Shown one piece after another: positions 39,062 to 62,259 of a stretch of 64,000 nt of DNA (its first letter is position 1; each line of letters begins with the position of its first letter). Below the pieces are notes generated by a model. That model did no database searches, was not told where the DNA came from, and saw only the letters and a list, made by a program, of their open reading frames with translations. The translations under genes and the position numbers were made by a program. Source of the DNA: an uncultured Bacteroidales bacterium (lineage in GTDB: Bacteria; Bacteroidota; Bacteroidia; Bacteroidales; CAZJKL01); assembly GCA_964546655.1 (NCBI GenBank), contig CAZJKL010000005.1:8220-72219 (forward strand), read 5' to 3'.

Positions 39062-40882
39062 ATGCTTAATAAAAGTTACTTCCACTATATTCTTATCTCA
39101 TTAATTGCTATTGTATTTTATGCTCAAACATTTAATTATGGTTATGTTTTAGACGATTTTATTGTTATAACAGGGAATAATTACACTCTCAAAGGTGTTG
39201 ATGGATTTTATGATATTTTTTCTAATGATGCTTTTAAGGGAGCTTATGGCGAACAACTTGATTTAACAGGTGGCAGATACCGACCTCTTTCAATTTTTAC
39301 TTTTGCTTTAGGTTACGACATGTGGGGCTTAAATCCTATGCCTGAGCATATTATAAATGTTTTGTTATTTGCTTTAACTGGTATTTTAATTTATATATTT
39401 ATAAGAAAAATTGATTCTGAAAACAATTATTGGCTTGCCTTAATTACTGCTGTTTTATTTGTCTCTCATCCTATTCATACCGAAGTTGTAGCAAATATTA
39501 AAAGCCGTGACGAAATTCTCGTCCTTATTTTTGGATTATTAACATTGTATTTTATTCTTAGTAAAAGCCGTTTCTCATTCTATTTAAGTTTAATAACTTT
39601 TATTTTTGGAATCTTTTCTAAAGAAAACTTTATTACTCTTATTGCTATTATTCCTATTGTTTTATATCTGTTTTCTAATTATTCAAATAAAGAAATAATT
39701 TTTAAATCTTCTGTTTTTTTAGGAATAACTATTTTGTTTTTAATTTTAAGAAATAATTTGGTTGGTATTGTCGGAGATAAGGGTGCAACTCAATTAATAG
39801 ATAACCCTTATTTATTAGCTTCTTTTAACGAAAAAACAGCTACAATTTTTTATACTTTAGGTAAGTATATTCAACTTCTTTTTTACCCTCATCCCCTATC
39901 TTCCGATTATTCTTTTAATTCTATACCTTTAATTAATTGGACTTCTTTTAAAGCAATCTTTTCTTTGTTACTTAATATTTCTTTGTTTATTTATGGAATA
40001 TATTTAATTGTTAAGAAAAAACATAAGGTTATTGCATTTGGAATTTTATTCTATTTTATTACTCTTTCAATAGCGTCTAATTTAGTTTTTAATATTGGAA
40101 CCTCTATGGGCGAACGTTTTATTTATTTGTCATCTTTTGGTTTTTGTATAGCTATTGCAAGTTTATTTCAGACTTATTTTAAATTTCTTTCGCAGAAATC
40201 TATTGAATTTAATTTTAAATGGATTTTACCTGTATTGCTAATTGTTATTATATTTTTCAATAAAACTTATAGTCGAAACAAGGCTTGGGAAAGCAATTAT
40301 ACTTTATATAAAACCGACTCTAAAATTGTTCCTAATAGTGCAAGAGTTCGTTTGTTTTATGGAATTGAATTAATAAATAGATACGATAAATATAAGAATA
40401 TCGAAGATATTAACAAAGCTATTAGCGAGATTACAGTAGCCGCTCAAATTGAACCTAATTTTTTTCATTCTCATTATAACTTAGGCGTTGCTTATCAAAA
40501 AATTGAAAACTATGATATGGCAATAAAATCATTTACCAGAGTTTTAGAAATTCAACCTTATCATATTCAATCAACCGTTGAGCTTGGAGTATGTTATGGC
40601 AAAGGTAAAGGTGATGCAAAAAATGCAATTTTTTACCTTAAAAAAGCTATTTTTGAATACAAACAAAACAAACCCGAATATTATGACTATCTTGGTATTT
40701 CATATAGTTTAAATGGTGAATTCGAAAAATCTATAAATACTTTTTCAGAAGGCATTAAAATGTATCCAGAAAGTGCTTCATTATATCGGAATTTAGCTGT
40801 AACTTATTATAATATAAACCAACCTGATAAAGGTGATTTTTATATAAATAAAGCTAAATTATTAGATCCTAATATTAAGTAA
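39062..40882 (+). CDS. TMTC/PMT_2-like GT-C membrane glycosyltransferase with C-terminal TPR repeats
   Basis: 606 aa. The N-terminal block LDDF...GGRYRPLS...H..NV is followed by about 10 TM segments and then TPR repeats. A paralog begins at 63643. Confidence 0.6.
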   Translation: MLNKSYFHYILISLIAIVFYAQTFNYGYVLDDFIVITGNNYTLKGVDGFYDIFSNDAFKGAYGEQLDLTGGRYRPLSIFTFALGYDMWGLNPMPEHIINVLLFALTGILIYIFIRKIDSENNYWLALITAVLFVSHPIHTEVVANIKSRDEILVLIFGLLTLYFILSKSRFSFYLSLITFIFGIFSKENFITLIAIIPIVLYLFSNYSNKEIIFKSSVFLGITILFLILRNNLVGIVGDKGATQLIDNPYLLASFNEKTATIFYTLGKYIQLLFYPHPLSSDYSFNSIPLINWTSFKAIFSLLLNISLFIYGIYLIVKKKHKVIAFGILFYFITLSIASNLVFNIGTSMGERFIYLSSFGFCIAIASLFQTYFKFLSQKSIEFNFKWILPVLLIVIIFFNKTYSRNKAWESNYTLYKTDSKIVPNSARVRLFYGIELINRYDKYKNIEDINKAISEITVAAQIEPNFFHSHYNLGVAYQKIENYDMAIKSFTRVLEIQPYHIQSTVELGVCYGKGKGDAKNAIFYLKKAIFEYKQNKPEYYDYLGISYSLNGEFEKSINTFSEGIKMYPESASLYRNLAVTYYNINQPDKGDFYINKAKLLDPNIK

Positions 40883-43348: not shown

Positions 43349-44431
43349 ATGAATAAACGCAAATTAAAAAAAGCATTAACAAGAATAATAAACCTACCTC
43401 TTAATAAATATTTGTTTTTATATATTATAAATAAACTTAAGCACTTTTATTTTAAAGCTATAAAATCTACTAAAGTAGCTTACCCTTCAACTATAATGTT
43501 AGAATTGACTAACCAATGTAATCTTGCTTGTACTATTTGCCCTAGAGAATACGAGTATGGTAAGTCGATGGATAAAGGACAAATGAACGTTGAATCAGCA
43601 AAAAAAATTATAGATGAATTATGGCCTTATTTAGATTCTATTGGATTAACCGGAATGGGTGAAACATTTTTATATAAAGAAATTGAAGAAGTTGTTGATT
43701 ATATAAAGATGAAAAACAAAGGGATTATAATTTCAGTATCAACTAATGCTGTTTTACCAGATTTTATTGAAAAAGTTTCTGGTTTGATTGGAAAAATTGA
43801 CACAATTCAAATATCAATTGATGGTTTAAATAATGTTTACGAAAGCATTAGAAAAAATGCTACTTTCAAAAAATTAGACGAGAACTTGCGATTGCTGTCG
43901 AAAATATCAACAAACAAAGGAACCGATTTAATGTTGAATATGGTTGTAACAAAAGAGAATTATATTCACATGCCTTTATTAGTTAAATATGCCGAAGAAG
44001 TTGGAATTAAATATATGGATTTCACTTTATTTAACCTTGCTTCTGTAACAAACATAGACCGTTCTTATTATGATTTTTATAAATCTATAGAATTCTCGAA
44101 TGTTCTTAGTGAATTAGAAGAAACAATAAACAATACTCCTAATGTTTTAGTTACTGAACGAAATTTTAGAACAGATAACAGTTTTAAAAAATGCCCTTTC
44201 CCTTGGACACATTTTTATATTTGTTGGAATGGATTTATTACTCCTTGCTGTGCTAAACCTTTCCCTAAAGAATTAAATTTTGGAAATGTATTTAACGATA
44301 AAGTTATTAATGTTTTAAATAGTTCTAGCTATAGAAAATTTAGAACTTTATGGTATGAGAATAAGACTCCTGACTTTTGTAATAAATGCCATTTTATTGA
44401 CATAGAACCAATAAATGATTGTTCTGTATAA
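43349..44431 (+). CDS. radical SAM / SPASM-domain protein
   Basis: 360 aa with CNLACTIC (CxxxCxxC) and a C-terminal Cys cluster (CPFPW...C....PCC...FCNKC) typical of SPASM/twitch auxiliary Fe-S domains. Confidence 0.85.
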   Translation: MNKRKLKKALTRIINLPLNKYLFLYIINKLKHFYFKAIKSTKVAYPSTIMLELTNQCNLACTICPREYEYGKSMDKGQMNVESAKKIIDELWPYLDSIGLTGMGETFLYKEIEEVVDYIKMKNKGIIISVSTNAVLPDFIEKVSGLIGKIDTIQISIDGLNNVYESIRKNATFKKLDENLRLLSKISTNKGTDLMLNMVVTKENYIHMPLLVKYAEEVGIKYMDFTLFNLASVTNIDRSYYDFYKSIEFSNVLSELEETINNTPNVLVTERNFRTDNSFKKCPFPWTHFYICWNGFITPCCAKPFPKELNFGNVFNDKVINVLNSSSYRKFRTLWYENKTPDFCNKCHFIDIEPINDCSV

Positions 44432-44797: not shown

Positions 44798-47344
44798 TTA
44801 TTCTTTTATAATTTTAAAAAATTCAAATTTTTCTTCAAATTGTAATACTAAATAATATTGTCCGGTATTTAAATAAGATAAATTTAAATTATAATTGTTA
44901 TTATTTATACTTTTATTTTCAACAATTTTACCATTTATATCAAATACTTTAAGTCCTTCAAACTTTGATTTAGCATCAATACTTATTTCAGAGCTAAATG
45001 GGTTTGGGTAAAGAGATACAATTTTATTTTGATTTAATGATAAATCGGCTATACCATTATTGCCTTCAATTTTAAAAATTGCTTTATTTGCTGAAGACAA
45101 ACTATATCCGTCATAAATACAATATTTAATAGAGTCTATTCCATTGAAATTTTGATATGGATAGTATTCAAAAGAACCATCATTATTCAAATTAATATGT
45201 CCGTTTACCGGTGGTTCAATTATTAAAGCAATCATATTGTTCCCATCTAAATCAAAATCATTTTTTAAAAGACCGTCATTTGCAGAAACAGTTATTGGAT
45301 ATATTTCATCTGCAAAATTGAATGAATCTAAAATAGCTATAGCAGGAGTATTAAATTTTTGTAGATTATCTTTCATTACAAAATATGATTTTTTTAAACT
45401 CTCGTTTACTGTTGAATTTGTAACATTTACCCAAGGCTCCCAATTAAAACGTTTTTGAGAACTGTGCCATTTATCTTTATACAAAACAGAAATTGCAAAT
45501 CCATCAGAAATTGTATCTTCTTTTTCTGGTGTATTTCTATAATCATTAAATACTTTCATCTGATCAGGTGCAACAACATTTAAGTAGAACCAAGGTATTT
45601 TAACTATAATTTTATCGTCAAAAATGGTTACTGCATCTTTAGAAGACTCTGGCTGAAAACCATAATTTACTTGTAAATTTCCAATATATTGAACATCAGA
45701 ATGGAAAGAATTATTTCTTACTCGAACAATATTCCATGGAGCCCCATCTGTAGAAATAGAATGATATAATTGCTTTGGTTCTGAAATATTATGCCAAATA
45801 CCAAATATATCGTATGCTTCTGTTACTAATAATTTAGCCGAATAGTTGGTTAAATGTAATGCAAATTCGGAACGAGAAGGAATTGTATCGCCAGTAGGCA
45901 AAATAGATTCTCCTTTATTTGCTAAATAAGTATCAAGAGAAATCCAAAGTTCATCAGGAATATCCAAAGGATTTTTAATACCAATTTCTAATTGAAAAAA
46001 TGAATAATTAACTTCACAATTTAAATAAGTTATATCAGTATTATTATTTAAGGGAATTAAAGTATCGTTATAAATATCTTTTCCATAAGAAACTAAACCA
46101 TAATTTTGTTCGGCAGCTGAGCTATTGTGCCATAATATTCTACTATCAGGAATATAATCAATAGGATCTGTTATCCATGTTTTTTTAAACCATTCATCAA
46201 TCCATGCAAATTGAATCCCTCCACCACATCCAACATTTTTAATATTTTCAAGTAAACGTAAATTTGTTAGCCCTTGATTGTAGTCGTCAAAACCACCATG
46301 ATTCATTCCAGAAGAAGAATAATGAGCAATAGCCCAGCTTGAAGGAACTCCATATTCAGCAATTATCAATGGATATTTAGTATAATGTGATTTCAATTCA
46401 GTTAAATATCCCAAATAACTATTAGGACCAATTTTATCAGAATAAGATTGATAAGAAGATTGTAAGCTAATAAAATCAGGATAATAAGGATAAGCATGAT
46501 AACTTATAAATAATCCGGCTGGAGCATTAACAATTTCAATTTTAGATAAATCAAGTGAAGCTGTATCTTCTTCAGAATTAGCCTCTTCAATGTGAACTAT
46601 TGGGTCTAATGTTGGCCAACTTGAATTACTTACTGGTCTTTCGGTATTATATTCTGTTTTTTGATATTCTACTGTATAGTCTAACATGCTTGTAAACCAT
46701 GATTCAGCAGCACTTGCATTTGTAATTGAAAAATGATTTCCAGAAAAAGAGTTTATATTTGAGTTCATTGAATTAGTTGTTAAAACTTCAATTGGATAAA
46801 CTTCTCTTCCAATTATAAAAGCCAAACACCATTTTGAAACATCAACAGAATAATTGCCATAGGCTTTTCCTAAACGAGACGATATTGTCCTATTTCCATG
46901 AACACAATCAATATTTTCTTCAATTTCTTGTTTAAAAATATTAGTTAAAAAATATAAATCATGGTTATATCCATTTACTTCTTCTTCGAGCCATACCCCC
47001 TGAATAAATAATAATGGATTTTGCTGATTTGCATTATTAAATGAATCAAGCACTTCGTAAAATCTTGGATAATGGAGCGTATATAATCTTATACAATTAA
47101 ATCCTGCTTCTTTTATCTGTGCAAACCATCTAGAATAATCATTTCTACTTGCAGCCATTTCGCCTGGAAATGTACCTGGTATGGCAACTCCAAGATTAAT
47201 CCCTTTTATGAAAAATGGTAAATACTCTGTGCCATTCCAAATAGTTAGGTTAGTTTTGTTTGTTGAATATGGAATGTTTTGACCAAAAGTAAACTTATAA
47301 AATGATAAAATTATGAAAACACAAATTATTGCCTTATATCTCAT
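44798..47344 (-). CDS. secreted clan-GH-A-like glycoside hydrolase with cadherin-like domain and T9SS type-A C-terminal sorting domain
   Basis: 848 aa with a signal peptide. The TIM-barrel-like N-half has FIKGINLG, GFNCIRLY, IIGREV (candidate acid/base) and LIIAEYG (candidate nucleophile). A DGLLKNDFDLDGN...NDGSFEYYP Ig/cadherin-like module follows. The C-terminus reads LYPNPFSSEISI...GQYYLVL (Por secretion tail). Confidence 0.6.
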   Translation of the reverse strand: MRYKAIICVFIILSFYKFTFGQNIPYSTNKTNLTIWNGTEYLPFFIKGINLGVAIPGTFPGEMAASRNDYSRWFAQIKEAGFNCIRLYTLHYPRFYEVLDSFNNANQQNPLLFIQGVWLEEEVNGYNHDLYFLTNIFKQEIEENIDCVHGNRTISSRLGKAYGNYSVDVSKWCLAFIIGREVYPIEVLTTNSMNSNINSFSGNHFSITNASAAESWFTSMLDYTVEYQKTEYNTERPVSNSSWPTLDPIVHIEEANSEEDTASLDLSKIEIVNAPAGLFISYHAYPYYPDFISLQSSYQSYSDKIGPNSYLGYLTELKSHYTKYPLIIAEYGVPSSWAIAHYSSSGMNHGGFDDYNQGLTNLRLLENIKNVGCGGGIQFAWIDEWFKKTWITDPIDYIPDSRILWHNSSAAEQNYGLVSYGKDIYNDTLIPLNNNTDITYLNCEVNYSFFQLEIGIKNPLDIPDELWISLDTYLANKGESILPTGDTIPSRSEFALHLTNYSAKLLVTEAYDIFGIWHNISEPKQLYHSISTDGAPWNIVRVRNNSFHSDVQYIGNLQVNYGFQPESSKDAVTIFDDKIIVKIPWFYLNVVAPDQMKVFNDYRNTPEKEDTISDGFAISVLYKDKWHSSQKRFNWEPWVNVTNSTVNESLKKSYFVMKDNLQKFNTPAIAILDSFNFADEIYPITVSANDGLLKNDFDLDGNNMIALIIEPPVNGHINLNNDGSFEYYPYQNFNGIDSIKYCIYDGYSLSSANKAIFKIEGNNGIADLSLNQNKIVSLYPNPFSSEISIDAKSKFEGLKVFDINGKIVENKSINNNNYNLNLSYLNTGQYYLVLQFEEKFEFFKIIKE

Positions 47345-47346
47345 AG

Positions 47347-47745
47347 TTATTTGTTTTGTAAATAATTAACAACAGTATCACCGTATTTTTTATCAGTATT
47401 TAAGATATGAGACAAAAACCACTTTTTCATAAAATCAATTAGCTTTTTATATAACATTGGATTGTTATAATCAAGCTCTAGCTTCATTTTATTTATTCTA
47501 TCAATAAAATAAATATGCTGAGCTTTATGATTTTCAATATCATCATATCCCGACAATTCAAGTAATCTCTCTTCGGTATTAAAATGCTCATTTAAATAAT
47601 TTTCTAAAAAAAGTATAAATTTCGACAGATCTTTATTATTATTATCACCATCTTTAATTTCATTTTCAATTATTTTAAAGAACCCTCTATGTTGTTCGTC
47701 TATTATTTCAATATTTAATAAATATTTATTTTCCCAATCGTTCAT
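47347..47745 (-). CDS. bacteriohemerythrin
   Basis: 132 aa with ID.QH, HF..EE, H..QH and SHIL..D iron-ligand spacing (H, HxxxE, HxxxH, HxxxxD). Confidence 0.85.
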   Translation of the reverse strand: MNDWENKYLLNIEIIDEQHRGFFKIIENEIKDGDNNNKDLSKFILFLENYLNEHFNTEERLLELSGYDDIENHKAQHIYFIDRINKMKLELDYNNPMLYKKLIDFMKKWFLSHILNTDKKYGDTVVNYLQNK

Positions 47746-47760
47746 AATTTTAATTATATT

Positions 47761-49182
47761 TTAATTTGATTTATCAAAAGCAGTTCTAGTCATTTTTCCC
47801 CAACCTTTTTTATCACCTTTTATAAAATATGAATAATTTCCGACTATTGAAAAATACACATTTAATGGATGATATATTATAATTTCAAGTATCGAGATGA
47901 ATATTACAGAAAACAAAAATTTATATCCTTTATATCTGTTGAAAATTAAAGTTTCGTAAAAAATTGCGAATGATGAAAAAAATAGAGAAAATGAAAAAAC
48001 AAAAAGTAATAGTATTAAAAATATTTCAACATTAATACTTGCAAAGGTTAACATTATAAAGAAATAGATTAAACCTAAAGTTTCAATAATTGGTGCAAGC
48101 CATTCAAAAGCAACCCAATAAGGAAAACTCAACAACCCCATTTTACCGTATTTAGGATTAAATAGCATATTTTTATGTTTTAAAACGGTGTCTATAGAGC
48201 CTCTGGTCCAACGATTTCTTTGATTTTTTAATGTTTGTAACTTTGATGGAACTTCGGTCCAACATAATGGGTCTGGGATAAATGCTACTTTGTATTTTTG
48301 TTTAGTTTTTTCGTGCATATATTTTCGCATACGAATAACAAGTTCAAAATCTTCACCCACAGTTGTTCTGTCGTAACCTCCAACAGCCATTGCAATTTTT
48401 TTATCAAACAATCCAAAAGCACCCGAAATAATTAGCAACCCATTTATTCTACTCCAAGCCATTCTTCCTAATGTAAAAGCTCTAAAATACTCAAGTACTT
48501 GAAATTTTGCCCAAATATTTTTTGGAAAGTTTACATTTACAACTCGACCATCTTTAATTTCGCAAGAATTAGCAACTCTAACTACACCGCCAGCAGCAAT
48601 TACCTTTTTTTTATCTTCTTCAATAAATGGTTTTACCATTTTTAAAATTGCATCAGGTTCAATAATGCAATCTACATCAATTGCTAAAAACAATTCAGAA
48701 CGAGAGATGTTAATTCCTGCATTTAAGGCATCTGCTTTTCCACCATTTTCTTTATCAACATAAATTAAATTTAAATAAGCAACATTTGTTGATTTATAAA
48801 TGCCTCTAATTTTTTCTGTATCAATATTCTGCTTAAAAGCATAGTCAACCTTAGCCAAACTATAATAATCAATAACCTTTTGTAAGCTATTATCTTTACT
48901 TCCATCATTAACTACAATAACTTCAACTTTAGGATAATCTAATGACAATAAACTTCTAATATTCTGAATAATACTTGCTTCTTCGTTATAAGCTGGGGCA
49001 ATAATTGAAATTGAAGGCAAAACTTTATATTCTTTAATTGTTTTAAATCTAAAATGTTTCGATTTTTTAGTGTAAAAAGACAAATCTATTGATGAAATAA
49101 TAGCCATAAACATATAGCTTAAAAATAGTAATGAGCCATAAATCAAAAAAAAGAAATTTAAAATATCGTAAAAATTATTCAT
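47761..49182 (-). CDS. processive family-2 glycosyltransferase (PgaC/IcaA/BcsA-like synthase)
   Basis: 473 aa with an N-terminal TM segment, VVNDGSKD, AIDVDCI (DxD), VGEDFEL, QRNRWTRG (QxxRW) and a C-terminal 3-4 TM bundle. Confidence 0.85.
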   Translation of the reverse strand: MNNFYDILNFFFLIYGSLLFLSYMFMAIISSIDLSFYTKKSKHFRFKTIKEYKVLPSISIIAPAYNEEASIIQNIRSLLSLDYPKVEVIVVNDGSKDNSLQKVIDYYSLAKVDYAFKQNIDTEKIRGIYKSTNVAYLNLIYVDKENGGKADALNAGINISRSELFLAIDVDCIIEPDAILKMVKPFIEEDKKKVIAAGGVVRVANSCEIKDGRVVNVNFPKNIWAKFQVLEYFRAFTLGRMAWSRINGLLIISGAFGLFDKKIAMAVGGYDRTTVGEDFELVIRMRKYMHEKTKQKYKVAFIPDPLCWTEVPSKLQTLKNQRNRWTRGSIDTVLKHKNMLFNPKYGKMGLLSFPYWVAFEWLAPIIETLGLIYFFIMLTFASINVEIFLILLLFVFSFSLFFSSFAIFYETLIFNRYKGYKFLFSVIFISILEIIIYHPLNVYFSIVGNYSYFIKGDKKGWGKMTRTAFDKSN

Positions 49183-49192
49183 ATCAATTTAA

Positions 49193-50431
49193 TTAAATAC
49201 TTAAATATACATTTGAAATTTCGTTGTAAACCATTTTTATTTCTTTATTCTCAGAATTTTCATATGAATATAGAATTGAAAAATCATTTTCATATAATAG
49301 CTTCATAATTTCAATTTTAACTAACAATGATTGCTCTTCCAAGATATTTTTAAGAAATTCAATATACCTATCTGTTATTATTATTCTTGAATTTCTTACA
49401 ATTGTTAATTTTATTTCATCAGGTTGATTTTCAAAACCTTGAATTATTATATCAATAGCATCATCTTCAGGAATTATATTTAGCAATGAATCCCATCCTA
49501 ATTGTCGTAAATTTAAATCATTACTTTCAATAAAATTAATTATTAATGTAAGATTTTGAATGTTTTTTCTGAACCTATATTTGGCTAATAAAAGTCCAAT
49601 AATATTTTTTTGAGTATTTTTTGATGCAAGTAATGCTCTGTAATCAATATTCATTTTATTATTTTTGAGCACGGCGTTAACAATAATATTTGCATCAAGC
49701 ACCGATAATGTGTTTTTATCTCCAATAAATCTAGTAAGATCTTCTCCTGTTTCAACTAATCTTATTAAAGAAACATATGCCTCTGTTCTTAATGCTATAT
49801 TATTACTATTTGAATATTTAACTATAAGTTTCGTAAACGATTTTATGCGCAAATATGAAATAATTTTCATTGCAATAATTTTATCATCAAAATTTCGGTT
49901 ATATATTATTCTTGCAATCTTTTTATTAAGATTAAGATCATTAATTAAAATTTTAAAGTAATTGCTTAAATCAACAGATAAAACTTCTTGAATATGTAAA
50001 TAAGTATCAATAAATGATAACAATTGAATTCTTGTTCTTAAAAATTGTTTTATTGTTTTATAAAAATTATTCTTTGATTCTTGAGTTTTATAGTGTTCTG
50101 AAATAAAATAATCAGATAAAAGGGCTGCAAATATTTTATCGTATTTTAATTTCAATATAGCATTTCTGTTTCTTTTAATTGTATAATAAAGACTTAAAGG
50201 TATAAAAATTAAAACACAAATAATAGATAATGCAATAAAACAAAAAACAAGGTAAATCCAAATTGGAAAACTTGTAATAAAATTATAAAATGGATTTATT
50301 ATTATGTAATTATTAAGTATAACTTCTTGTTGCTGAAAAAAATAAACAATAACAAAAAATAAAACTACAAGGCTCAATAAAAAAAATTTTAAAAGCAATC
50401 TAGGCAAATAAAATAATATTGTATAAATCAT
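49193..50431 (-). CDS. membrane protein with cytoplasmic HEAT/ARM-like repeats
   Basis: 412 aa with 2-3 N-terminal TM helices, then about 300 aa of repeated helical units (NIALRTEAYVSLIRL, LRQLGWDSLLNI, LLVKIEIMKLLYE). No PilZ, GGDEF or MshEN motifs seen. Confidence 0.45.
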   Translation of the reverse strand: MIYTILFYLPRLLLKFFLLSLVVLFFVIVYFFQQQEVILNNYIIINPFYNFITSFPIWIYLVFCFIALSIICVLIFIPLSLYYTIKRNRNAILKLKYDKIFAALLSDYFISEHYKTQESKNNFYKTIKQFLRTRIQLLSFIDTYLHIQEVLSVDLSNYFKILINDLNLNKKIARIIYNRNFDDKIIAMKIISYLRIKSFTKLIVKYSNSNNIALRTEAYVSLIRLVETGEDLTRFIGDKNTLSVLDANIIVNAVLKNNKMNIDYRALLASKNTQKNIIGLLLAKYRFRKNIQNLTLIINFIESNDLNLRQLGWDSLLNIIPEDDAIDIIIQGFENQPDEIKLTIVRNSRIIITDRYIEFLKNILEEQSLLVKIEIMKLLYENDFSILYSYENSENKEIKMVYNEISNVYLSI

Positions 50432-50434
50432 TAT

Positions 50435-51664
50435 TTAAAGTTTAAATTTCATTATTAGTTCTAATGTAAATCGATTTCTAAAGTTATTTTTCATAAACTC
50501 TTCGTAAGAATATCCTATTGATAAATTTATTTCGTGATATTTATATAGCCGAGTGTTTTTTGCAAGTTTAAATTTATAATTACTTAAAAGCAATTGTTCT
50601 GAAGTTTGTGAAATAGAATAACGTTCATCGGGTGAATTTCCGTAAACAAGCTCAATTCCCCAATAATTTATCGGATTTTTTTGATAATATCTACTAGTTA
50701 AAATTGTAGTAAAAGATTTTTTTGATCCTTTGATTACATAAAAAGGGCGAAACATAAACCACATATTTTTTACATATGTATTAATATTTCCAGTAAATAT
50801 CAAAATATTACTTGTATCTGCATTAAAAAAACGTCCTCCTAAAGATATTTCGGTTGATTTTAATATTGGTAAATAAAATTCCAATCCTGCTTTATATTCC
50901 GGATATAGAGTTTTATTTATTCCTATTCCCAAATTACTATACAAATAAAGTTTTTTGTTGAAAAAATGATAGTAATCTACTTCTGGCTGAAAATCATCTA
51001 AATTAAATTTATTCACATAATTAAGACGTGGAATTAAAATATGTTTTTTAATTTTTATAGCATAATCAATAAATGAAATATATTGTGTATTGGTTACATT
51101 ATCATCAAAAAAGTCTAATGAGGAATAAAAAGAAATTATATTTGATTTTTTCAGACTTCGCATTTCAATATATAATTGCTTTATTGCTGTTGAATCTAAA
51201 AATGTTTTATTTTCTTCAATAAAGTTAATTCCTTTTTCAAATTCATTAGTATTTTTAAAAGCAATAGTTTTTTTCAAAATAATATTATAGTTATTATTAT
51301 AATTATTTTTTTTAGCTATTTCGCATACTTCAAAAAGTTTCTTATAATCTGATTTCCAAAGCAAAATATTAAGCCAAGTATCGTATAATTCGTTACTTAT
51401 AGGGTTAAGCATATATGCTTTTTCAATATCAAGAAGTGCTTTATCATATTCGCCTTTCCATGCCTTAATATTTGCAGCATATACAATAACATCATATCTA
51501 TTGGGTTGCATTTGCAAAATATTATCCACCTTTAACAAAGCTTCATCATATTTTTTATTACGAGCATCATTAATTGCAGAATTAAAAAGTGAATCTGAAT
51601 TAACTTGCGAAAATAATTCATTAATTAATAAAATAAATGAAATAAATATATATATAGTTTTCAT
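50435..51664 (-). CDS. TPR-repeat plus YaiO-like outer-membrane beta-barrel protein
   Basis: 409 aa with a signal peptide, about 170 aa of TPR-like repeats, then about 230 aa of alternating aromatic beta-strand pattern. The architecture resembles PgaA/NfrA. Overlaps the upstream receiver gene by 4 nt. Confidence 0.55.
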   Translation of the reverse strand: MKTIYIFISFILLINELFSQVNSDSLFNSAINDARNKKYDEALLKVDNILQMQPNRYDVIVYAANIKAWKGEYDKALLDIEKAYMLNPISNELYDTWLNILLWKSDYKKLFEVCEIAKKNNYNNNYNIILKKTIAFKNTNEFEKGINFIEENKTFLDSTAIKQLYIEMRSLKKSNIISFYSSLDFFDDNVTNTQYISFIDYAIKIKKHILIPRLNYVNKFNLDDFQPEVDYYHFFNKKLYLYSNLGIGINKTLYPEYKAGLEFYLPILKSTEISLGGRFFNADTSNILIFTGNINTYVKNMWFMFRPFYVIKGSKKSFTTILTSRYYQKNPINYWGIELVYGNSPDERYSISQTSEQLLLSNYKFKLAKNTRLYKYHEINLSIGYSYEEFMKNNFRNRFTLELIMKFKL

Positions 51665-52050
51665 GCATTATTCGTTTTATCGATATTCGATTTGAAAAGT
51701 TCTATTGCTTGTTCTGGATTAAATGGTTTGTTAATAAAGTAATTAGCTCCAATTAAAATTGCTTTTCTTTCACTGTCATGTTCTTTTACGCCAAAATAAA
51801 TAATAGGACACTTTATTTTTATATTTTCTCTTAAAAAAGAGATAAGTTCATAACTTGAAGTTCCTATTATTAAATCGTCAATTAAAACCAAATCAATATC
51901 ATCATTCTTAGATAGTTCATTTGCCTCTGAAAATGAATCAAACACTTTAAATTTAACTTCACTGAAACACTTTTCTAATAATTTTTTAATAATTTCAGAA
52001 AGCACAATATCGCAGGTAAAAAGAATAATATTGGGGGTATTTGAATTCAT
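51661..52050 (-). CDS. stand-alone response-regulator receiver domain (atypical)
   Basis: 129 aa with a CheY-like fold pattern. LVLID (phospho-Asp position) and NKPF (Lys) are conserved, but the acidic pair reads CD and the Thr/Ser position reads G. Confidence 0.7.
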   Translation of the reverse strand: MNSNTPNIILFTCDIVLSEIIKKLLEKCFSEVKFKVFDSFSEANELSKNDDIDLVLIDDLIIGTSSYELISFLRENIKIKCPIIYFGVKEHDSERKAILIGANYFINKPFNPEQAIELFKSNIDKTNNA

Positions 52051-52169: not shown

Positions 52170-52637
52170 ATGACAAATATAACTTTGTTTTCACAAATAA
52201 TTTCAAAATTAGATAGAATAAATTTTTCAAAACTTGTAAAATCTAAGCAAACAGATAAGCACCACAAGGGTTACAATAGTTGGACTCACTTGGTGTCTAT
52301 GTTATTTTGCCATTTTGCAAAAAGTCAATCTGTAAGAGATATCAGTAATGGTCTTCGTTCAGCTACAGGCAACCTAAATCATCTTGGTATCGCAAAGGCT
52401 CCATCTAAATCCACTATCAGTTATCAGAACAAACATCGCAACTGGGAACTGTTTAGAGAGTACTATTATCAGTTATTTGGAAGTTTAGGACAGCAAGTTG
52501 GGTTTAAGCAAGTAAAGTTTAAAATTAAGAGCAAAATATTTCTTTTAGATTCCACTACTATCAGTTTGTGTTTATCTCTTTTTGATTGGGCAAAATACAA
52601 GACCTCTAAAGGAGCTGTAAAAATGTGTTTTGGGTAG
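52170..52637 (+). pseudogene. IS4-family transposase, N-terminal (DUF4372) fragment only
   Basis: The 155-aa ORF matches the conserved N-terminus of Bacteroidota IS4-family transposases (LFSQIISKL, SWTHLVSMLFC, VRDISNGL, GNLNHLGI, LDSTTISLCLSLFDWA). It stops at GAVKMCFG*, where full-length proteins continue into the DDE domain (about 380-400 aa from memory). Confidence 0.8.
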
Positions 52638-52638
52638 T

Positions 52639-53256
52639 TTACTTTTTATTTTCAATTAGTGCTCTCAATTTTAAAAAGATGCGATATATTGATTCTATTT
52701 TCTCTCTATCAAAAAGCCAGTCTTGAATTAAATATATTCCAATATTTGAAGTGTCTTTTAGTGATGTTTCAAAATTGTTTCTCAAGTCATTTAATCCTAT
52801 TCTTAATCTTTCATCTATTTTAAACAAGTCTAAAATTAGGCCTTGTATTTCATAGTCATTAAGAAAGTTTATCTCTTGGTTCTCTGATGTGTCTGATTCT
52901 ATAAGTATTTCTTTATCAAAGTTGTTACCTATTGTTATTAGTCCTTTTTTACTTTGAAATATGTTTATTCTATGTATTAAATACTTCTTTTTTATTGTTA
53001 TTCTTTTCTGATTTAACTTGTCTATGTTTGAAAAAACACCAGAATAAAAATTCCTTTCTGAAAATCCTTTGGGGTCATAATAACTTAAGAACAAATCTCT
53101 TTTTTCTAAATCCATTGGTATTAAGACTGTTCGTTTCTGGTAAACTACTCTTTCTACAAAGTTTGAGGGATATGGTATTTCTTTATATTCAATTTCTCGT
53201 CCTGTAGATTTTGCAAAATCTATATAAAACGCTATTGAACTTGATATTTCTGTCAT
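52639..53256 (-). CDS. hypothetical protein (205 aa), no recognisable family
   Basis: ATG-initiated ORF. Its stop lies 1 nt from the end of the truncated transposase ORF. Spot G+C count is 15/60 at 52741-52800, similar to the AT-rich background. Confidence 0.45.
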   Translation of the reverse strand: MTEISSSIAFYIDFAKSTGREIEYKEIPYPSNFVERVVYQKRTVLIPMDLEKRDLFLSYYDPKGFSERNFYSGVFSNIDKLNQKRITIKKKYLIHRINIFQSKKGLITIGNNFDKEILIESDTSENQEINFLNDYEIQGLILDLFKIDERLRIGLNDLRNNFETSLKDTSNIGIYLIQDWLFDREKIESIYRIFLKLRALIENKK

Positions 53257-53439: not shown

Positions 53440-54321
53440 TTAGTTATTTTCTTCGTAATAATAAGAGTAATCAATCCCTTTCATAAACATTTCTCTGTCA
53501 TTTATTTTTGTAGTGATTACTTTTTCTAAAAGAGATTTTAGAACACTGCTTTTGGTTGGACTTAGCATCATTGCGTTCATGTAATCTTGCTTACTTATTT
53601 TACTCCAATCAACGCATTTTTCTAAGCGTTTTTTCAGTATCAAATCTAACCATATTCTGGTGCTTCTACCATTACCTTCCATAAAAGGGTGTGCAATATT
53701 CATTTCTACATATTTGTTTACGATTTCGTCAAATGTAGTTTCGGGCATTGCTTCTATTTGCTTTAATGTGTCGCCTAAAAATCGTGATACGGCAAATTGA
53801 AATCCTCCTTTTGAAATATTTTTTTGTCTAATTTGTCCCGCAAAATCATATAAACCTCCAAACAAATATGCATGTATTTGTTGCAAACCTTTTGTTGTAC
53901 CTACTTCTATGCTATTTATAAAAGAACTTTCAAACATTGCATAAGCTTTTGTTTTACTTTTTCCATCTATGCTTTCATCACTGTATGTAAACCATTCAAT
54001 AAATCGGTTGGCCTTTTTACCAGGAAATTCTTTACCTAAAGCAATTATACCGTTATAATCGAGCATATCGGCTAAACGCTTTTTACTGTCTGGTGCAAGA
54101 AATTTCAACTGGGTAGTAGCACTAACCACTTGACTGTTTTCTTTCTTTAACTTAGCTTTAAGATATTTCCAATAGTTTCGGGTTTTAGCGTAGTCGTCTT
54201 GGTCGGTAAGCAAAGCTACAATATCCAACACACTAAACCACCATTTTGAGTTTTGTTCGTCCCAAACGGCTCGCACTTCGCGATCGTCAAAAAAACGTAT
54301 GGATATTTTTGCATTACTCAT
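53440..54321 (-). CDS. Bro-N domain / Fic (Fido) domain fusion protein
   Basis: 293 aa. The N-terminus [32 protein letters not shown]...[12 protein letters not shown] is Bro-N-like. The C-terminal half has [11 protein letters not shown] and the canonical Fic motif [12 protein letters not shown]. Confidence 0.85.
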
Positions 54322-54536: not shown

Positions 54537-55403
54537 TTATTGAATATTTATTTTATTAACAGACTGATATTCACTATTATAAACTTTTACAAAATACATT
54601 CCTGATGATAAATTTGAAACGTTTATAGTTTTATTTAATTCACCATTTTGAATTTGTGAGTTATATACAATTTGTCCGTTTAAATTAACAATTTGAATTT
54701 TAGTATCGGTATTGTTATTTTCTAAATTAACAAACAAATAATTATCAGCATTTGTTGGAAAAACTTTAACATTATTTTCTTCAATATTTTCTAATCCTAA
54801 AGCATTTCCTTCTGCTGATAATTCATCTATTGTAAAAGTACTACCTGGTTTAGTCGCATTAGTTTTTGAAGAATAAAATGTTATTATTATTTTATCTGGT
54901 TGAATATAATTAGAGTAACTTAAATTAACTTCAAATTTAGTCCAAACATCAACATTTCCACTGCTAGTAAATTCACCTGTAGCAATATCAGATCCTCCGT
55001 TTTGCAATCTAACTTTAACAATAGCATCATCTGTTATTGAATCTGTATGATATTTAAACCAACCAACTATTTTTTCTGGGGTATCTGTAAAAGCAGCACC
55101 TCCTGTTGGATCTCCCATTCCAATTGTGCCACAAGTTAAAACACCAGTAAAAGGAGTTCTAATACTATCCAGTCCTTGAAAAATAGGAGGAATAACTAAA
55201 TTTTTAGAAACAATATTTACTGAGGAACTTCCTGCATAAGGAGAAGTAGTTTTTTGCATAACACTGCCAGCTATTGTACCGTTTAATGAGTTCCAACTAG
55301 TTGGATTTCCATCTGTCCAATTTTCAAAACCTGGATTTGGAATTTGTGCATTTGAAATTATTGCAAATGATAGTAAAGTAATTAATGTGTAGATTTTTTT
55401 CAT
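54537..55403 (-). CDS. T9SS-secreted protein (PCMD/CBM-like beta-sandwich plus type-A sorting domain)
   Basis: 288 aa with a signal peptide, IPNPGFENWTDGNPTSWNS near the N-terminus, and a C-terminal VFPTNADNYLFV...SGMYFVKV Por secretion tail. Confidence 0.7.
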   Translation of the reverse strand: MKKIYTLITLLSFAIISNAQIPNPGFENWTDGNPTSWNSLNGTIAGSVMQKTTSPYAGSSSVNIVSKNLVIPPIFQGLDSIRTPFTGVLTCGTIGMGDPTGGAAFTDTPEKIVGWFKYHTDSITDDAIVKVRLQNGGSDIATGEFTSSGNVDVWTKFEVNLSYSNYIQPDKIIITFYSSKTNATKPGSTFTIDELSAEGNALGLENIEENNVKVFPTNADNYLFVNLENNNTDTKIQIVNLNGQIVYNSQIQNGELNKTINVSNLSSGMYFVKVYNSEYQSVNKINIQ

Positions 55404-55487: not shown

Positions 55488-58400
55488 CTAATGCTTTATA
55501 ACTATTTTTTGAACTATGTAATTATTTTCTGAATTAATCTTTAAGAAATAAATTCCTGATGAAATATTGTCGGTGTTTATTTTTAATTCATTTATTCCTA
55601 TTTTATTTAATAAAACATTCTTATAATAAAAAACTTCGCCTTTAATATTAATAATTTCAATATCAACACTAGTATTATCATAAGCATTTAAACTCAAATT
55701 AAGTTCACTATTGCAAGGGTTTGGATAAACTTCGAACAAACTAAAATCAGTAATTTCAGCAATATTATTATATCCAATTATAGCCATAGTATCTATAAAA
55801 CAATCGTTGCTATCAGTAACAATAACTGAATAATAACCCGAACACAAATTATAAATACTATCAGTACTTTCACTTGTTCCCCATAAATAATAATATGGTG
55901 GTGTTCCTCCAAAAATATTTACTTTTGCATTACCATCACACAATAAATGCGATGTTTCATCATTAATTTGTAGTGTTAAATAAAGTGAATCTGGACTATT
56001 TATAATTGTATCAGAAGATGTTATACATCCTTTTGCATCTGTAACTTGAACTATATTAGAACCTTTACATAATCGATAAGCCGTTATGCTTGTTTCCTGA
56101 GAACTATTCCATAAATAAGAATATGGCATTGTTCCTCCAACTGCAATAACTGTTGCTTTACCATTACATTCATTATTACATTTAATATCTTCTTTTAATG
56201 AAATAAATGAAAATAAAGAGTCGGGTTGTGAAAGAACAATTACGGTATCAATAACACAATTTTTATTATCAATTAAATTAAGCCTATAAATACCTGATGA
56301 TAAGTTATTTATAGAAGAAGCATTTTGATTTAAAGGTGTCCATAAATACTGTATAGGTTGCTGTGCATTATTTGCAATAACATTAATACTTCCATCTGAA
56401 TATTTAAAACAACTAGGATCTTGTATAGTTAAATTCACATTTAAACAATTAGTACTTGTGATATTAACACTTTTATTTTTAGTACAACCATTTGCATCAG
56501 TAACAGTAACAGTGTAATTTCCTATACATAAACCAAATGAAGTATCGTTAGCTTGAGCTAAATTATCGTTCCATAAATAATTATAAGGCTGTGTACCTCC
56601 CAACGCTAGAACAATAGCCTTAGCATCACAATACTTGCAACACGATTCTGCCAAGAAAGATGTTGATAAAGATAGTTTTGCAGGTTCAATAATTTCAATT
56701 GTATCTATAGATAAACATCCTTTAGCATCAAAAACAGTTAAATAGTATTCGCCTTTACATAAATTTGATATAACTGTGGTATTATTTCCAACACTATTCC
56801 AAGTATAAGTTACAGGTTCAATTCCATTAGTTTTAACTCTAACCGCTCCATCACATAATCCAAAACAAGAAATATGTTTAACCGAATCAAAATCAATAAT
56901 AATAGTATCATGTTTAATAATATTAATTGTATCAATAAACACACACCCTAAATTATCAGATAAAGTATATGAATAAACTCCTTCACATAAATTTTCCCGA
57001 ACCGAATCCGTAGAAGCATCATTCCAAGAAAAACTATATGGCTTCTCCCCTCCTTTTAATTGCAAGTTTATAGTACCACTACAATTTTGAGTACATCCAA
57101 TAATAGTATCACCAGTAAAAATTGTTCTTAATGCTTTAGAATTATCAAGAACAACAGTATCGCTAACAATACAATTATTAAAATCGGTAATATTAACTAT
57201 ATATTCACCTAAAAAAAGTTTTGTAGCTAAAGCTGTAGTTTGATTTTCTGAATCATTCCATAAATAATTATAAGGACTGGTTCCTCCGGTAACAATAGAT
57301 TGAATAGTAGCATTAGTATCAGATAAACACTTAATATCATTAATTAAAAATGAAATATTTAAAGTATCAGGACTAGTAATTTGAATAGAATCAACAATAG
57401 AAATACCTAAGGAATCTGTAACTGTCAGATAATATAATCCTTCACATAAACCTGTTGCAATGTTTGTTGTTTGAGCATTAGCATCACTCCACAAATAGCT
57501 ATAAGGTTGAACACCACCTATTACATTAGCAGTAGCAGAACCATCACAATTATAAGAACAAGATTTATTATTTACATTATTAAAAGTCATTTTTAAATTA
57601 TAGCTTGAATTTGCTATTCGAGTATTAGTTTTTAATTCTGTTAAAGAACTTCCGCAAACAATTGCAAAAGCTAATGTAATTGAATCTCCAGCATTTAAGT
57701 TTAAAGGCTCACAAGAAATTGATTGAGATATATCATTAGTATCTGCAGTTAATTTATTTGTTGACAGCATATTATACTTTTCAATTCCAGAAAAATTATC
57801 ATATAAATTTAAGCTTCCGTTAACGCCAGGGTTTTCATTAATCCATGCTTTTGCATTTTGTTGAGTTAATAACGAAACTCCTGCAAAAACAGCTTGAGTT
57901 GAAGGGTAAGTATATATAAGTTTATTAGTTGAATTATAATTACCTATATTATTAGAATATTGATCAATATCAAAATCACAAAACAATCCGGCACTAAAAC
58001 CATTAAGAGCAGAAGCACCGTTATTAATAATTTTATATTCAACAATATAAAAATTCTTTTTAGGGTCATTTTCCCAAAAATAACTTTTATGTTTAACCTT
58101 AACATTTAACTTATTTGCAGCAGCATTATCATCATTAAATTCGCCATAAGTCTCATAATCACATTTATTAGAATTTACTTTCTTAATAACTTTTACAATA
58201 TTAAAATCTGCATCATAAGGATTAACTGAAGAGCTACCATAAGTCATATCCGAAACCTTAGAATCTGAAGTTCCAACCATTAAACTTCCAGCAAAAATTA
58301 AATTATTATTATTATATTCTAATCCTAACCCTTGAGTATTTGCAGAATTATTATATCCAATCATTCCTTTGCTTGTAACCGAAGTAGATATGTTGTTAAT

Positions 58401-61107: not shown

Positions 61108-62259
61108 TTATCGATTTACTGTTATCGATTTACTTATTGGAGGTAAATGATAATTGCCTATACCAGTAGCTGAAATCATATAAAAATAAACTCCATTAGG
61201 CACTTCGTTACCTTTCATATCTTTACCATCCCAAAAGTCATCTATTTGTTTTGATTCAAATACTTTTCGGCCATTTCTGTCAACAATAAATATAAAGAAG
61301 CTTTCGATATTTTTATATTCATATTCAAATTTATCATTGTTTCCGTCGTAGTTTGGAGTAAAAATATTGCATTTTGGTTCTATATATGAATTTACTTTAG
61401 CGGTTATATGAATAGTATCTACTGAATAATTTTCTTGTTCATCATAACCACATACTTTAACAATATAATTACCGGGTTTTTCGAATGTATATGAAATATT
61501 ATTGCCTTCTATTTTTTTCCCGTTAATTTCCCAAACCGATTTATAAACATGATTTACATTAAATAAAACAGTATTTAATGGTGCCGTTCCTGATTTTTTT
61601 GCTGTTTCTATTTTAGCATAATTATAATTTACACTTTTTGTTTTATTGCAATTTTCAACAATTTCTTTTTCATTGTTTTTAGAACTACAATTTTTAGTAT
61701 TAACAATTGAATTGCTTGTTTGAGCTAAATTTTGTTGGCTTAAAACTATATTTTCATTTGTTTTGTAATTACTAACTGTTTGTTTATTTAACAATGCTCC
61801 CGAAATGCTTTCATTTTTATTATTTAATTTTGGTTCATTTGTTTTACTTAAATTTTCTGTTTCTTTTAAGTTTACATTATTATTATTATCAACTTTATTT
61901 TCTTCATTATTAATTACATTTATTTCATTATTTATATTTTCCGAGTTATCATTATTATCTTTTATTGAATCGTTTATAACCGAAACAATTTCAGTATTTG
62001 GTTCAATATTATTTTGAATATTATTAGAATTAACAATATTGTATATTACTACTGTTGTAGCAATTATACCTATTGACGACAATGTGTATGATATTGTCTT
62101 TATATTCTTTAATAAGAAGTCTTTAACGGAATTTGTATTATTAAAATTAGGTTTATTTGATATGTTATTGTTAATATTTTCCCAAATAGATGGGTCTATA
62201 TCAGCTTCAAACTTATCAAATTTATTTTTAATAATATCTTCAAAATTATTTATACTCAT
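61108..62259 (-). CDS. putative anti-sigma factor: N-terminal cytoplasmic segment, one TM, Asn-rich linker, PKD-like domain, T9SS type-B (gliding-motility CHU_C) C-terminal domain
   Basis: 383 aa, overlapping the ECF sigma gene by 4 nt. The TM segment is ISYTLSSIGIIATTVVIYNIV, with PGNYIVKVCGYD (PKD-like) downstream. The C-terminus FTPNYDGNNDKF...VDRNGRKVF...WDGKDMKGNEVPNGVYFY matches the type-B CTD consensus. Confidence 0.6.
   Translation of the reverse strand: MSINNFEDIIKNKFDKFEADIDPSIWENINNNISNKPNFNNTNSVKDFLLKNIKTISYTLSSIGIIATTVVIYNIVNSNNIQNNIEPNTEIVSVINDSIKDNNDNSENINNEINVINNEENKVDNNNNVNLKETENLSKTNEPKLNNKNESISGALLNKQTVSNYKTNENIVLSQQNLAQTSNSIVNTKNCSSKNNEKEIVENCNKTKSVNYNYAKIETAKKSGTAPLNTVLFNVNHVYKSVWEINGKKIEGNNISYTFEKPGNYIVKVCGYDEQENYSVDTIHITAKVNSYIEPKCNIFTPNYDGNNDKFEYEYKNIESFFIFIVDRNGRKVFESKQIDDFWDGKDMKGNEVPNGVYFYMISATGIGNYHLPPISKSITVNR

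Follow-up and report, generated by a model that had tools for sequence, protein, structure and literature searches.

The window analysed here is a stretch of 64,000 nucleotides from an uncultured Bacteroidales bacterium (contig CAZJKL010000005.1, positions 8,220 to 72,219), and the subject of this report is a run of six genes on its minus strand (44798–52050) that probably encodes a polysaccharide synthesis and export system without a cyclic di-GMP (c-di-GMP) module. In gene order these are a single-domain receiver (REC; 51661–52050, 129 amino acids), which is the first gene of the putative operon; a protein with a tetratricopeptide-like (TPR) region and a YaiO-family barrel (50435–51664, 409 amino acids); a protein with transmembrane (TM) helices and HEAT-like repeats (TM-HEAT; 49193–50431, 412 amino acids); a family-2 glycosyltransferase (GT2; 47761–49182, 473 amino acids); a hemerythrin (47347–47745, 132 amino acids); and a glycoside hydrolase-like (GH-like) protein with a type IX secretion system (T9SS) sorting tail (44798–47344, 848 amino acids). 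The spacings along the run are −4, 3, 10, 15, and 2 nt, the REC stop overlapping the start of the TPR-YaiO gene by 4 nt. An initial annotation, made from the letters of the sequence, had given these open reading frames (ORFs) and spacings, which were reproduced exactly. Its domain calls were nearly all borne out by profile searches, the exceptions being the number of TM helices, which is two and not three, and the TPR, for which the signal is weak. The gene order is not due to chance, since it recurs in about 25 independent loci.

The GT2 is of the processive type (PF00535, PF13641, PF13632) and is the predicted polymer synthase. The motifs D93, D169-V-D171, G276-E-D278, and Q321-R-N-R-W325 can be read directly from the sequence, and there is one hydrophobic segment in the N-terminal part and at least three in the C-terminal part, so that the DxD, GED, and QRNRW motifs and the C-terminal TM bundle of the initial annotation were all found again. 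With these predicted motifs and segments and its similarity to PgaC and BcsA, the protein has the features of the membrane-embedded processive glycosyltransferase expected of a synthase-dependent system. When a profile of the GT2 was compared with solved structures, only generic GT-A N-termini and a weak match of profile residues 258–387 to BcsA were obtained, and a close solved relative is therefore lacking. Among relatives in the same clade the GT2 is 62–85% identical, as compared to 27–60% for the partner proteins.

The best NCBIfam match of the GT2 is PgaC_IcaA (TIGR03937, E 1.8e-43). By BLASTP the protein is 24% identical to PgaC of E. coli over 368 residues (E 4e-30), several databases label its homologues "poly-beta-1,6-GlcNAc synthase", and the TPR-YaiO protein shows a weak match to PgaA-TPR. 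The locus could on these grounds be a divergent poly-beta-1,6-GlcNAc (PNAG) system of the pga/ica type, with the GT2 as PgaC orthologue, the TPR barrel as a short PgaA, and the GH-like protein as a dispersin-like hydrolase. However, the match to PgaC_IcaA amounts to 149 bits, which is far under the equivalog cutoff of 422, and neither a PgaD, nor a CE4 deacetylase, nor a GH153 domain (PgaB) is found among the six proteins. The barrel is of the YaiO type and reaches only 17.8 bits with the PgaA model (cutoff 366), the similarity of the GH-like domain is to GH157, GH2, and GH5 and not to GH153 or GH20, and pga/ica contains nothing equivalent to the obligatory HEAT partner. Orthology to PNAG systems was rejected because of the low bit score and of the missing PgaD, PgaB, and PgaA-type barrel, and a PNAG system in disguise is considered highly improbable. 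Indeed, with 24% identity to PgaC and no significant similarity to NfrB, the GT2 lies outside any characterised clade.

Directly upstream of the GT2 gene lies that of the TM-HEAT protein, for which no Pfam, NCBIfam, or PDB sequence match of its own was found. Its AlphaFold model (pLDDT 83) shows two N-terminal TM helices, connected by a short uncharged loop, and then a helical solenoid at residues 117–410. Foldseek searches with this model returned ARM/HEAT proteins only, for example the PP2A A subunit, importin-alpha, and designed ARM proteins. The solenoid of paired helices in the model, together with the fact that distant relatives in the same genomic position match PF13646 (HEAT_2), places the protein among the HEAT/ARM alpha-solenoids. 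The HEAT-like repeats called at first thus stood, with two TM helices instead of the proposed two to three. The inter-TM loop contains no Lys or Arg, and six such residues follow directly after TM2, from which it follows by the positive-inside rule that the loop should be periplasmic and the solenoid cytoplasmic. In the longer members of the family (530–606 amino acids) no fusion to a sensor domain was found, only HEAT_2 and one SPOR domain.

The putative outer-membrane exporter consists of a signal peptide, a TPR-like N-terminal region (residues ~20–170), and a YaiO-family beta-barrel (residues ~175–409). The N-terminus is hydrophobic as read from the sequence. The barrel is recognised by PF19413 (E 1.9e-39, 135.8 bits, cutoff 23.9) and by TIGR04390 (E 1.5e-33, 116.7 bits, cutoff 32), whereas the TPR part of the original call is represented by weak N-terminal matches to TPR_2, TPR_19, and PgaA-TPR. 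The predicted domains therefore provide the TPR plus outer-membrane barrel that is typical of the synthase-dependent class, with a barrel family that differs from those of PgaA, BcsC, PelB, and AlgE.

The last gene of the run encodes a protein of three parts (all on the minus strand): residues 1–660 with a signal peptide, a (beta/alpha)8 barrel, and a beta-sandwich (45365–47344), residues 665–760 with a cadherin-like/Big_9 domain (45065–45352; PF17892, E 2.9e-11; PF17963, E 1.7e-9), and residues 778–848 with a T9SS type A C-terminal sorting domain, including the stop codon (44798–45013). Residues 22–660 had no Pfam, NCBIfam, or PDB sequence match. Their AlphaFold model (pLDDT 77, pTM 0.76) shows the barrel and the sandwich, and the top Foldseek matches were GH157 (E 9e-9), GH2, GH66, GH5, GH164, and GH17 at 8–13% identity. 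E181, E330, R86, H283, and Y285 are invariant in 13 of 13 sequences, homologues from Firmicutes and Deinococcus included. In the model, Glu181 is at the end of strand 4 and is a candidate acid/base, and Glu330 at the end of strand 7 is a candidate nucleophile. Fold and glutamates fit clan GH-A; the preceding residue, usually Asn, is here Arg (Ile in the Christensenellaceae homologue). The tail scores 45.8 bits with PF18962 (cutoff 27) and 37.9 bits with TIGR04183 (cutoff 23), and with the signal-like N-terminus it marks the protein as a T9SS type A cargo. The T9SS itself is deduced from cargo genes, three more of which lie nearby. Model, Foldseek, and sorting-domain profiles thus agree with a secreted clan GH-A-like protein, as had been proposed.

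The hemerythrin is a single-domain bacteriohemerythrin, predicted to be cytoplasmic (TIGR02481, E 4e-30, 104 bits, cutoff 51.75; NF033749, 97.7 bits, cutoff 84). It contains exactly five His (19, 54, 73, 77, and 113), which with E58 and D118 make up the full set of seven diiron ligands. The motifs H, HxxxE, HxxxH, and HxxxxD are all complete, and the first assignment of the gene is thereby confirmed. The ligands are conserved in 17 of 18 orthologues. A role as sensor of O2, redox state, or iron is proposed.

The REC protein consists of one PF00072 domain (39.1 bits, cutoff 30.2) and nothing else, in agreement with the initial call of a receiver-only regulator. A phosphorylatable receiver should have an acidic pair (D12/D13 in CheY), the acceptor Asp57, Thr/Ser87, and Lys109. 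In an alignment with CheY and canonical receivers, the acceptor (Asp58) and the lysine (Lys108) of the window REC are kept, but Thr-Cys stands in place of the acidic, Mg-binding pair, and the protein does not qualify as phosphorylatable despite its PF00072 domain. In all 20 orthologues of the clade the positions of the pair are taken by Ser or Thr and a mostly hydrophobic residue; the acceptor is changed to Asn in 4 of the 20, and the Lys is retained in 19. With the pair lost throughout and the acceptor lost in some, the receiver of the window's clade may be a pseudo-receiver.

Profile searches with Pfam and NCBIfam found no PilZ, GGDEF, EAL, or MshEN domain and no deacetylase in the six proteins, nor was a PgaD-like gene or a PgaD domain among them, all of which had been noted as absent at the outset; a PelD, kinase, or Hpt domain was not found in the six proteins either. 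In the region 26.5–63.5 kb of the window, scanned for ORFs of at least 150 amino acids and one of 131 amino acids, there was likewise no PilZ, GGDEF, EAL, MshEN, PgaD, PelD, deacetylase, histidine kinase, or Hpt domain. Bacteroidetes have been reported to be devoid of c-di-GMP enzymes and receptors (PMC9259658), and another mechanism of control is therefore to be expected.

The set of close relatives was assembled by a genome scan with the GT2, and 21 further loci then came from a metagenome scan with a TM-HEAT alignment and from two look-ups of contigs that carry homologues. In about 25 related Bacteroidales loci the order is REC, TPR-YaiO, TM-HEAT, GT2, hemerythrin, GH-like protein. In the GT2 genome scan, three loci of Bacteroidales metagenome-assembled genomes had all six genes in unchanged order. 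In a fourth such genome (L004:10847–11912) the GH-like gene is in short fragments, due to either pseudogenisation or an assembly error, and the other five genes are intact. TM-HEAT is found directly upstream of the GT2 in 25 of 25 informative loci, and the hemerythrin directly downstream of it in 18 of 18, with gaps of 10–50 nt and down to a GT2 identity of 62%. A YaiO gene precedes TM-HEAT in every locus but one. The exception is a metagenomic locus (L046:1195–2903) in which the receiver is followed by TM-HEAT after a gap of 144 nt without a YaiO gene between. The GH-like gene comes right after the hemerythrin in 10 of 16 informative neighbourhoods; it is relocated in one (upstream, in Ancylomarina), degraded in one, and absent in four, and is thus frequent but dispensable for the neighbourhood. 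It had been considered damaging to the proposal if the genes were not co-conserved, or if the HEAT and barrel proteins turned out to belong to unrelated characterised families; the order was found to be kept, and the two proteins belong to no such families.

The co-conservation of the six genes stands, and yet they are not the full set, for many relatives have a seventh gene that is missing from the window. The gene codes for a protein of about 396 amino acids with one N-terminal TM helix and adjoins REC on its upstream side in at least nine loci, for example at L003:5922–7112, L026:5213–6391, L027:3462–4649, L029:472–1662, L035:5167–6357, L036:4703–5893, and L042:5140–6330. Truncated remnants are present in L002, L030, and L034, and the gene is lacking in L001, L004, L019, and in the window upstream of 52050. 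It has no Pfam, NCBIfam, or PDB match, and a search of PDB sequences with its X395 profile was also empty. At the place where relatives hold the seventh gene, an ORF for a truncated IS4-like transposase N-terminus (DUF4372, E 9e-24; 52170–52637, plus strand) abuts the upstream end of the operon. It is followed by an ORF of 205 amino acids (52639–53256, minus strand) that matches no family; a remnant of the seventh gene was considered and rejected, as there is no similarity.

Beyond this clade the pairing of TM-HEAT with GT2 persists. In Flavobacteriia the GT2 (45–52% identity) is preceded by a protein of 356–404 amino acids that matches PF13646 (HEAT_2) and/or the TM-HEAT profile, a YaiO protein follows, and canonical receivers are nearby in some. 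Plasmids of Emticicia (L047: response regulator, HEAT-like, GT2, TPR, YaiO, and an LtaS-family gene), Bacteroides finegoldii (HEAT, GT2, DUF4838 protein), and Haloarcula halophila (response regulator, HEAT, GT2, GAF kinase) carry further versions. On a plasmid of Mesorhizobium ciceri the genes are kinase, response regulator, response regulator, YaiO, HEAT, and GT2, and the opposite strand carries an Hpt gene, so that the REC-YaiO-HEAT-GT2 order of the window recurs in an alphaproteobacterium. In Deinococcus radiophilus and a member of the Christensenellaceae a GH homologue is followed by HEAT and then GT2; these homologues are 28–30% identical over residues ~40–660 and keep the catalytic glutamates. 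The one from the D. radiophilus plasmid (L051:1391–3817, 808 amino acids; 28% over residues 43–663, E 4e-82) is annotated as "tetratricopeptide repeat protein". Flavobacterium sp. LB2P44 (L010) has two tandem HEAT-GT2-YaiO sets. A protein of the sulfatase/LtaS superfamily (PF00884), in one case with TPR, is present in variants from this organism (L010:6638–9028) and from Emticicia (L047:8649–10616). This superfamily includes the cellulose phosphoethanolamine transferase BcsG, and the polymer of these variants may therefore be decorated.

TM-HEAT precedes GT2 in Bacteroidota, Firmicutes, Deinococcota, Alphaproteobacteria, and haloarchaea. Since the pair persists across such distant phyla, TM-HEAT and GT2 are the core of the module, often with a single-domain receiver before it, with a YaiO barrel in diderms, and with the GH family joining repeatedly. 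Judged from these neighbourhoods, the REC-(YaiO)-HEAT-GT2 arrangement is old, and the hemerythrin and the 396-amino-acid protein are additions specific to a clade of the Bacteroidales/Marinilabiliales type. The initial annotation had assumed that a receiver, a hemerythrin, and a HEAT subunit took over regulation. The part of this that dispenses with c-di-GMP has stood, and the part that makes the HEAT protein a regulator particular to this clade has not, the protein being a universal partner of the GT2. Because TM-HEAT adjoins this GT2 across phyla, it is more likely to be a co-subunit or adaptor without which the synthase does not occur than a clade-specific regulator.

Two other readings bear on this distribution. 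The first is that nothing is exported: the GT2 might transfer sugar to a lipid, or it might assemble a glycan of the periplasm or cell wall or a NodC-like oligosaccharide signal, and the roles of the YaiO protein and the T9SS glycosidase, in envelope or nutrition, would have nothing to do with it. There are weaker GT2 matches to NodC and chitin synthase models, the module extends to archaea and monoderms, whose cells lack an outer membrane, and some neighbourhoods do not include the GH-like gene. Against this it can be said that QxxRW, a C-terminal TM bundle, and a BcsA-like region typify synthases that are processive and translocate their product, that YaiO barrels accompany the GT2 clade in both Bacteroidota and Alphaproteobacteria, and that linkage of the GH homologue to HEAT-GT2 is seen in three phyla. 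In addition, the Christensenellaceae homologue has a lipobox-like N-terminal signal, probably for a lipoprotein anchor, and this signal and the T9SS tail of the Bacteroidota proteins put the enzyme outside the cytoplasmic membrane. With its linkage and its predicted exposure at the surface, as opposed to the periplasm, the GH-like protein is a candidate polymer-processing enzyme, and the chance that the glycan is not secreted is regarded as slim.

The second reading concerns the small proteins. It accepts only HEAT-GT2, together with the porin, as the conserved unit. Hemerythrin and receiver would be passengers from stress response or housekeeping that are transcribed along with it, such as a buffer for O2 or iron and a receiver in decay, and would not control the synthase directly, regulation being transcriptional or absent. 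The hemerythrin is indeed confined to one clade and the receivers of this clade are degenerate; the versions from Flavobacterium and Firmicutes have no hemerythrin and some have no receiver nearby. It should also be noted that the hemerythrin-regulator operons of Porphyromonas gingivalis and Bacteroides thetaiotaomicron respond to iron (PMC10434189). Against this reading, the hemerythrin keeps its place next to the GT2 in every informative locus, and its diiron ligands are under selection. A receiver, moreover, precedes HEAT-GT2 in Bacteroidota, in an alphaproteobacterium, and in a haloarchaeon, which would be difficult to account for if it were a mere passenger. We consider this reading unlikely. 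The regulatory roles of REC and hemerythrin themselves are suggested by association of the genes.

The best reading after domain and neighbourhood analysis is thus the one already sketched in the initial annotation, namely a variant exopolysaccharide (EPS) machine without a c-di-GMP module and with a glycosidase routed via the T9SS. Going by the domains and by the order in which the genes are conserved, the GT2 is envisaged as a membrane-embedded processive synthase. From a common nucleotide sugar it would build a chain, probably with beta linkages, which would pass through the C-terminal TM bundle of the same protein. The synthase would work together with the two-TM protein, whose HEAT solenoid is on the cytoplasmic side; the TPR-YaiO protein would be the conduit across the outer membrane; and the clan GH-A-like enzyme, after export by the T9SS, would trim, release, or remodel the polymer at the cell surface. 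Since the block contains no precursor genes, the GT2 is of an inverting family, and the partner resembles retaining beta-glycanases, a beta-linked homopolymer of a housekeeping UDP-sugar is indicated, the most likely guess being a GlcNAc- or Glc-based beta-glycan.

Going a step further, the HEAT solenoid could be a platform where small proteins of the cytoplasm dock to turn the synthase on or off after translation, and it would then stand in for the PilZ, PgaD, PelD, and MshEN receptors of c-di-GMP-controlled systems. In the distant relatives a CheY-like receiver capable of phosphorylation would provide the input, with neighbouring kinases feeding it; the HEAT-GT2-linked receivers of Mesorhizobium, Haloarcula, and Flavobacterium are canonical. 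In the Bacteroidales clade the hemerythrin would sense O2, redox state, or iron and the receiver would be a structural adaptor. The loss of receiver chemistry and of a nearby kinase, and the gain of a hemerythrin with intact diiron site, suggest this shift of input away from a phosphorelay, and O2, redox state, or iron, perceived via the hemerythrin, is the likely input in the window's clade. Overall we hold it to be moderately probable that the locus is a c-di-GMP-independent system of the synthase-dependent type that operates as described. Only tentatively do we put forward the wider proposal that REC-HEAT-GT2 is an unrecognised class of glycan synthases of Bacteria and Archaea in which a HEAT adaptor couples a CheY-like receiver to the synthase, that in anaerobic Bacteroidales the receiver decayed and a hemerythrin was recruited as a direct O2/redox/iron switch, and that the 848-amino-acid enzyme founds a new glycoside hydrolase family, active on the polymer at the surface once the T9SS has exported it; it is at present rather doubtful that all of this holds.

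Several points weigh against the reading of the locus as such an export system. With ~230 residues, the YaiO barrel falls short of the known EPS porins in size, and the literature searched contains no YaiO-family protein demonstrated to export a glycan. The window lacks the seventh gene, and 4 of 16 informative neighbourhoods, as stated, have no GH-like gene. Instead of sensing, the hemerythrin could serve to buffer O2 or iron and be co-transcribed with the rest. The T87 column of the receiver was aligned inconsistently between two alignments and was not relied upon. It is the spacing that suggests co-transcription of the six genes. A scan for promoters and terminators was uninformative, with 76 promoter-like sites where 65 were expected and one terminator where 1.8 were expected; the promoter tool has no Bacteroidota promoter model, and the DNA has a GC content of 26%.

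Further upstream are three genes with T9SS tails, all on the minus strand: a PCMD-like protein (54537–55403), an S8 peptidase with SprB repeats (55488–60128, 1546 amino acids), and a CHU_C-tailed protein (61108–62259), followed by a gene for an ECF-type sigma factor at 62256–62795. Other flanking genes encode a Fic/Bro-N protein (53440–54321, minus), a radical SAM/SPASM protein (43349–44431, plus), and a TMTC-like TPR protein with a PF08409 match (39062–40882, plus). None of the latter three is conserved beside the operon in the relatives.

Synthase-dependent exopolysaccharide systems, such as those for cellulose, PNAG, Pel, alginate, and the Nfr glycan, are textbook targets of c-di-GMP. To our knowledge, none has been characterised in Bacteroidota. 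The window locus is a concrete and widely conserved candidate for this phylum, and as judged from its relatives it belongs to a broad, uncharacterised family of HEAT-partnered GT2 systems; it also offers a testable chain of control, consisting of the HEAT adaptor and the receiver and/or the hemerythrin. The HEAT-GT2 core is found with a receiver in rhizobia and haloarchaea and without an adjacent one in a Deinococcus. As the core is so widespread, a single characterised example would annotate many genes now named "glycosyltransferase family 2" or "HEAT repeat protein". It would also assign a function to YaiO-family barrels and define a new glycosidase family, which could be used to degrade the matrix of biofilms from anaerobic digesters and sediments and of those formed by gut Bacteroidales.

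A literature search with YaiO, HEAT, hemerythrin, GT2, and synthase-dependent systems revealed no description of such a system; papers on the lipocone superfamily and on EmbRS looked promising and proved irrelevant. Among the known systems, pgaABCD/icaADBC is closest with respect to the synthase, PgaC being the nearest named relative of the GT2. Both systems have a processive GT2 with D, DxD, (T/G)ED, and QxxRW motifs and, as predicted for the window, a small to medium-sized membrane co-subunit (required for activity in pga/ica), a TPR plus beta-barrel exporter, and an associated glycoside hydrolase activity. Apart from the low identity and the sub-cutoff scores of synthase and barrel given above, the window system differs in having no PgaD, no c-di-GMP interface, and no deacetylase. 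Its hydrolase is a separate T9SS-exported clan GH-A-like protein, whereas that of pga is the periplasmic GH153 domain of PgaB.

The nfrB-nfrA-ybcH genes of E. coli encode a c-di-GMP-activated glycan system needed for infection by phage N4 (PMC8669469, PMC8669472). They resemble the window genes in the compact arrangement of a GT2, a TPR/outer-membrane protein, and a TIM-barrel-like auxiliary protein (YbcH, DUF4434), and the initial annotation had listed nfrAB among the synthase-dependent systems. BLASTP gave no significant match of the GT2 to NfrB or of the barrel protein to NfrA, and homology was rejected. NfrB carries MshEN and NfrA carries PF13283 (NfrA_C), neither of which occurs in the window proteins; nfr has no HEAT protein, receiver, or hemerythrin. 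As NfrA possesses NfrA_C and not a YaiO barrel, the comparison is one of analogy and not of homology.

With BcsA-BcsB-BcsC-BcsZ the system would have in common a membrane GT2 that translocates its product, the catalytic/interface region of the window GT2 aligning with BcsA, as well as a TPR-porin exporter, a dedicated glycosidase, and, as proposed, post-translational gating by a cytoplasmic signal-binding module. In contrast to Bcs, there is neither PilZ nor BcsB; the gate, if any, would be the separate TM-HEAT protein with its partners receiver and hemerythrin, and the glycosidase is predicted to be routed to the surface by the T9SS, whereas in Bcs it is a periplasmic GH8 enzyme. That YaiO-family barrels adjoin GT2 genes elsewhere, too, follows from yaiS-yaiP-yaiX-yaiO of E. 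coli K-12 (L025, 380069–384616), which encode, in one strand-cluster, a deacetylase, a GT2, an acyltransferase split by IS2, and the founding YaiO barrel. This cluster looks like a decayed polysaccharide locus using the same barrel family. YaiP is 26% identical to the window GT2 in the N-terminal half only, E. coli YaiO does not have the TPR extension, and HEAT, receiver, hemerythrin, and GH genes are lacking.

For the proposed inputs there are parallels as well. The bacteriohemerythrin of the Bhr-DGC system of V. cholerae reportedly acts through a diguanylate cyclase. In Bhr-DGC, and also in the hemerythrin-CdhR operon of P. gingivalis (PMC10434189), a hemerythrin is the O2, redox, or iron input to a biofilm or regulatory output, and the latter operon shows that the pairing of a hemerythrin with a response regulator exists in Bacteroidota. 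Their output is via a diguanylate cyclase or a DNA-binding regulator, whereas here a stand-alone hemerythrin gene directly follows that of the synthase. In Myxococcus xanthus EpsW, a response regulator with a single domain, activates polysaccharide synthesis post-translationally by binding to the glycosyltransferase EpsZ (PMC12802240). EpsW-EpsZ belongs to a Wzx/Wzy pathway, its target is a phosphoglycosyl transferase, there is no HEAT adaptor, and the receiver of the window's clade appears to be non-canonical; nevertheless, this pair is a precedent for a REC input that replaces c-di-GMP.

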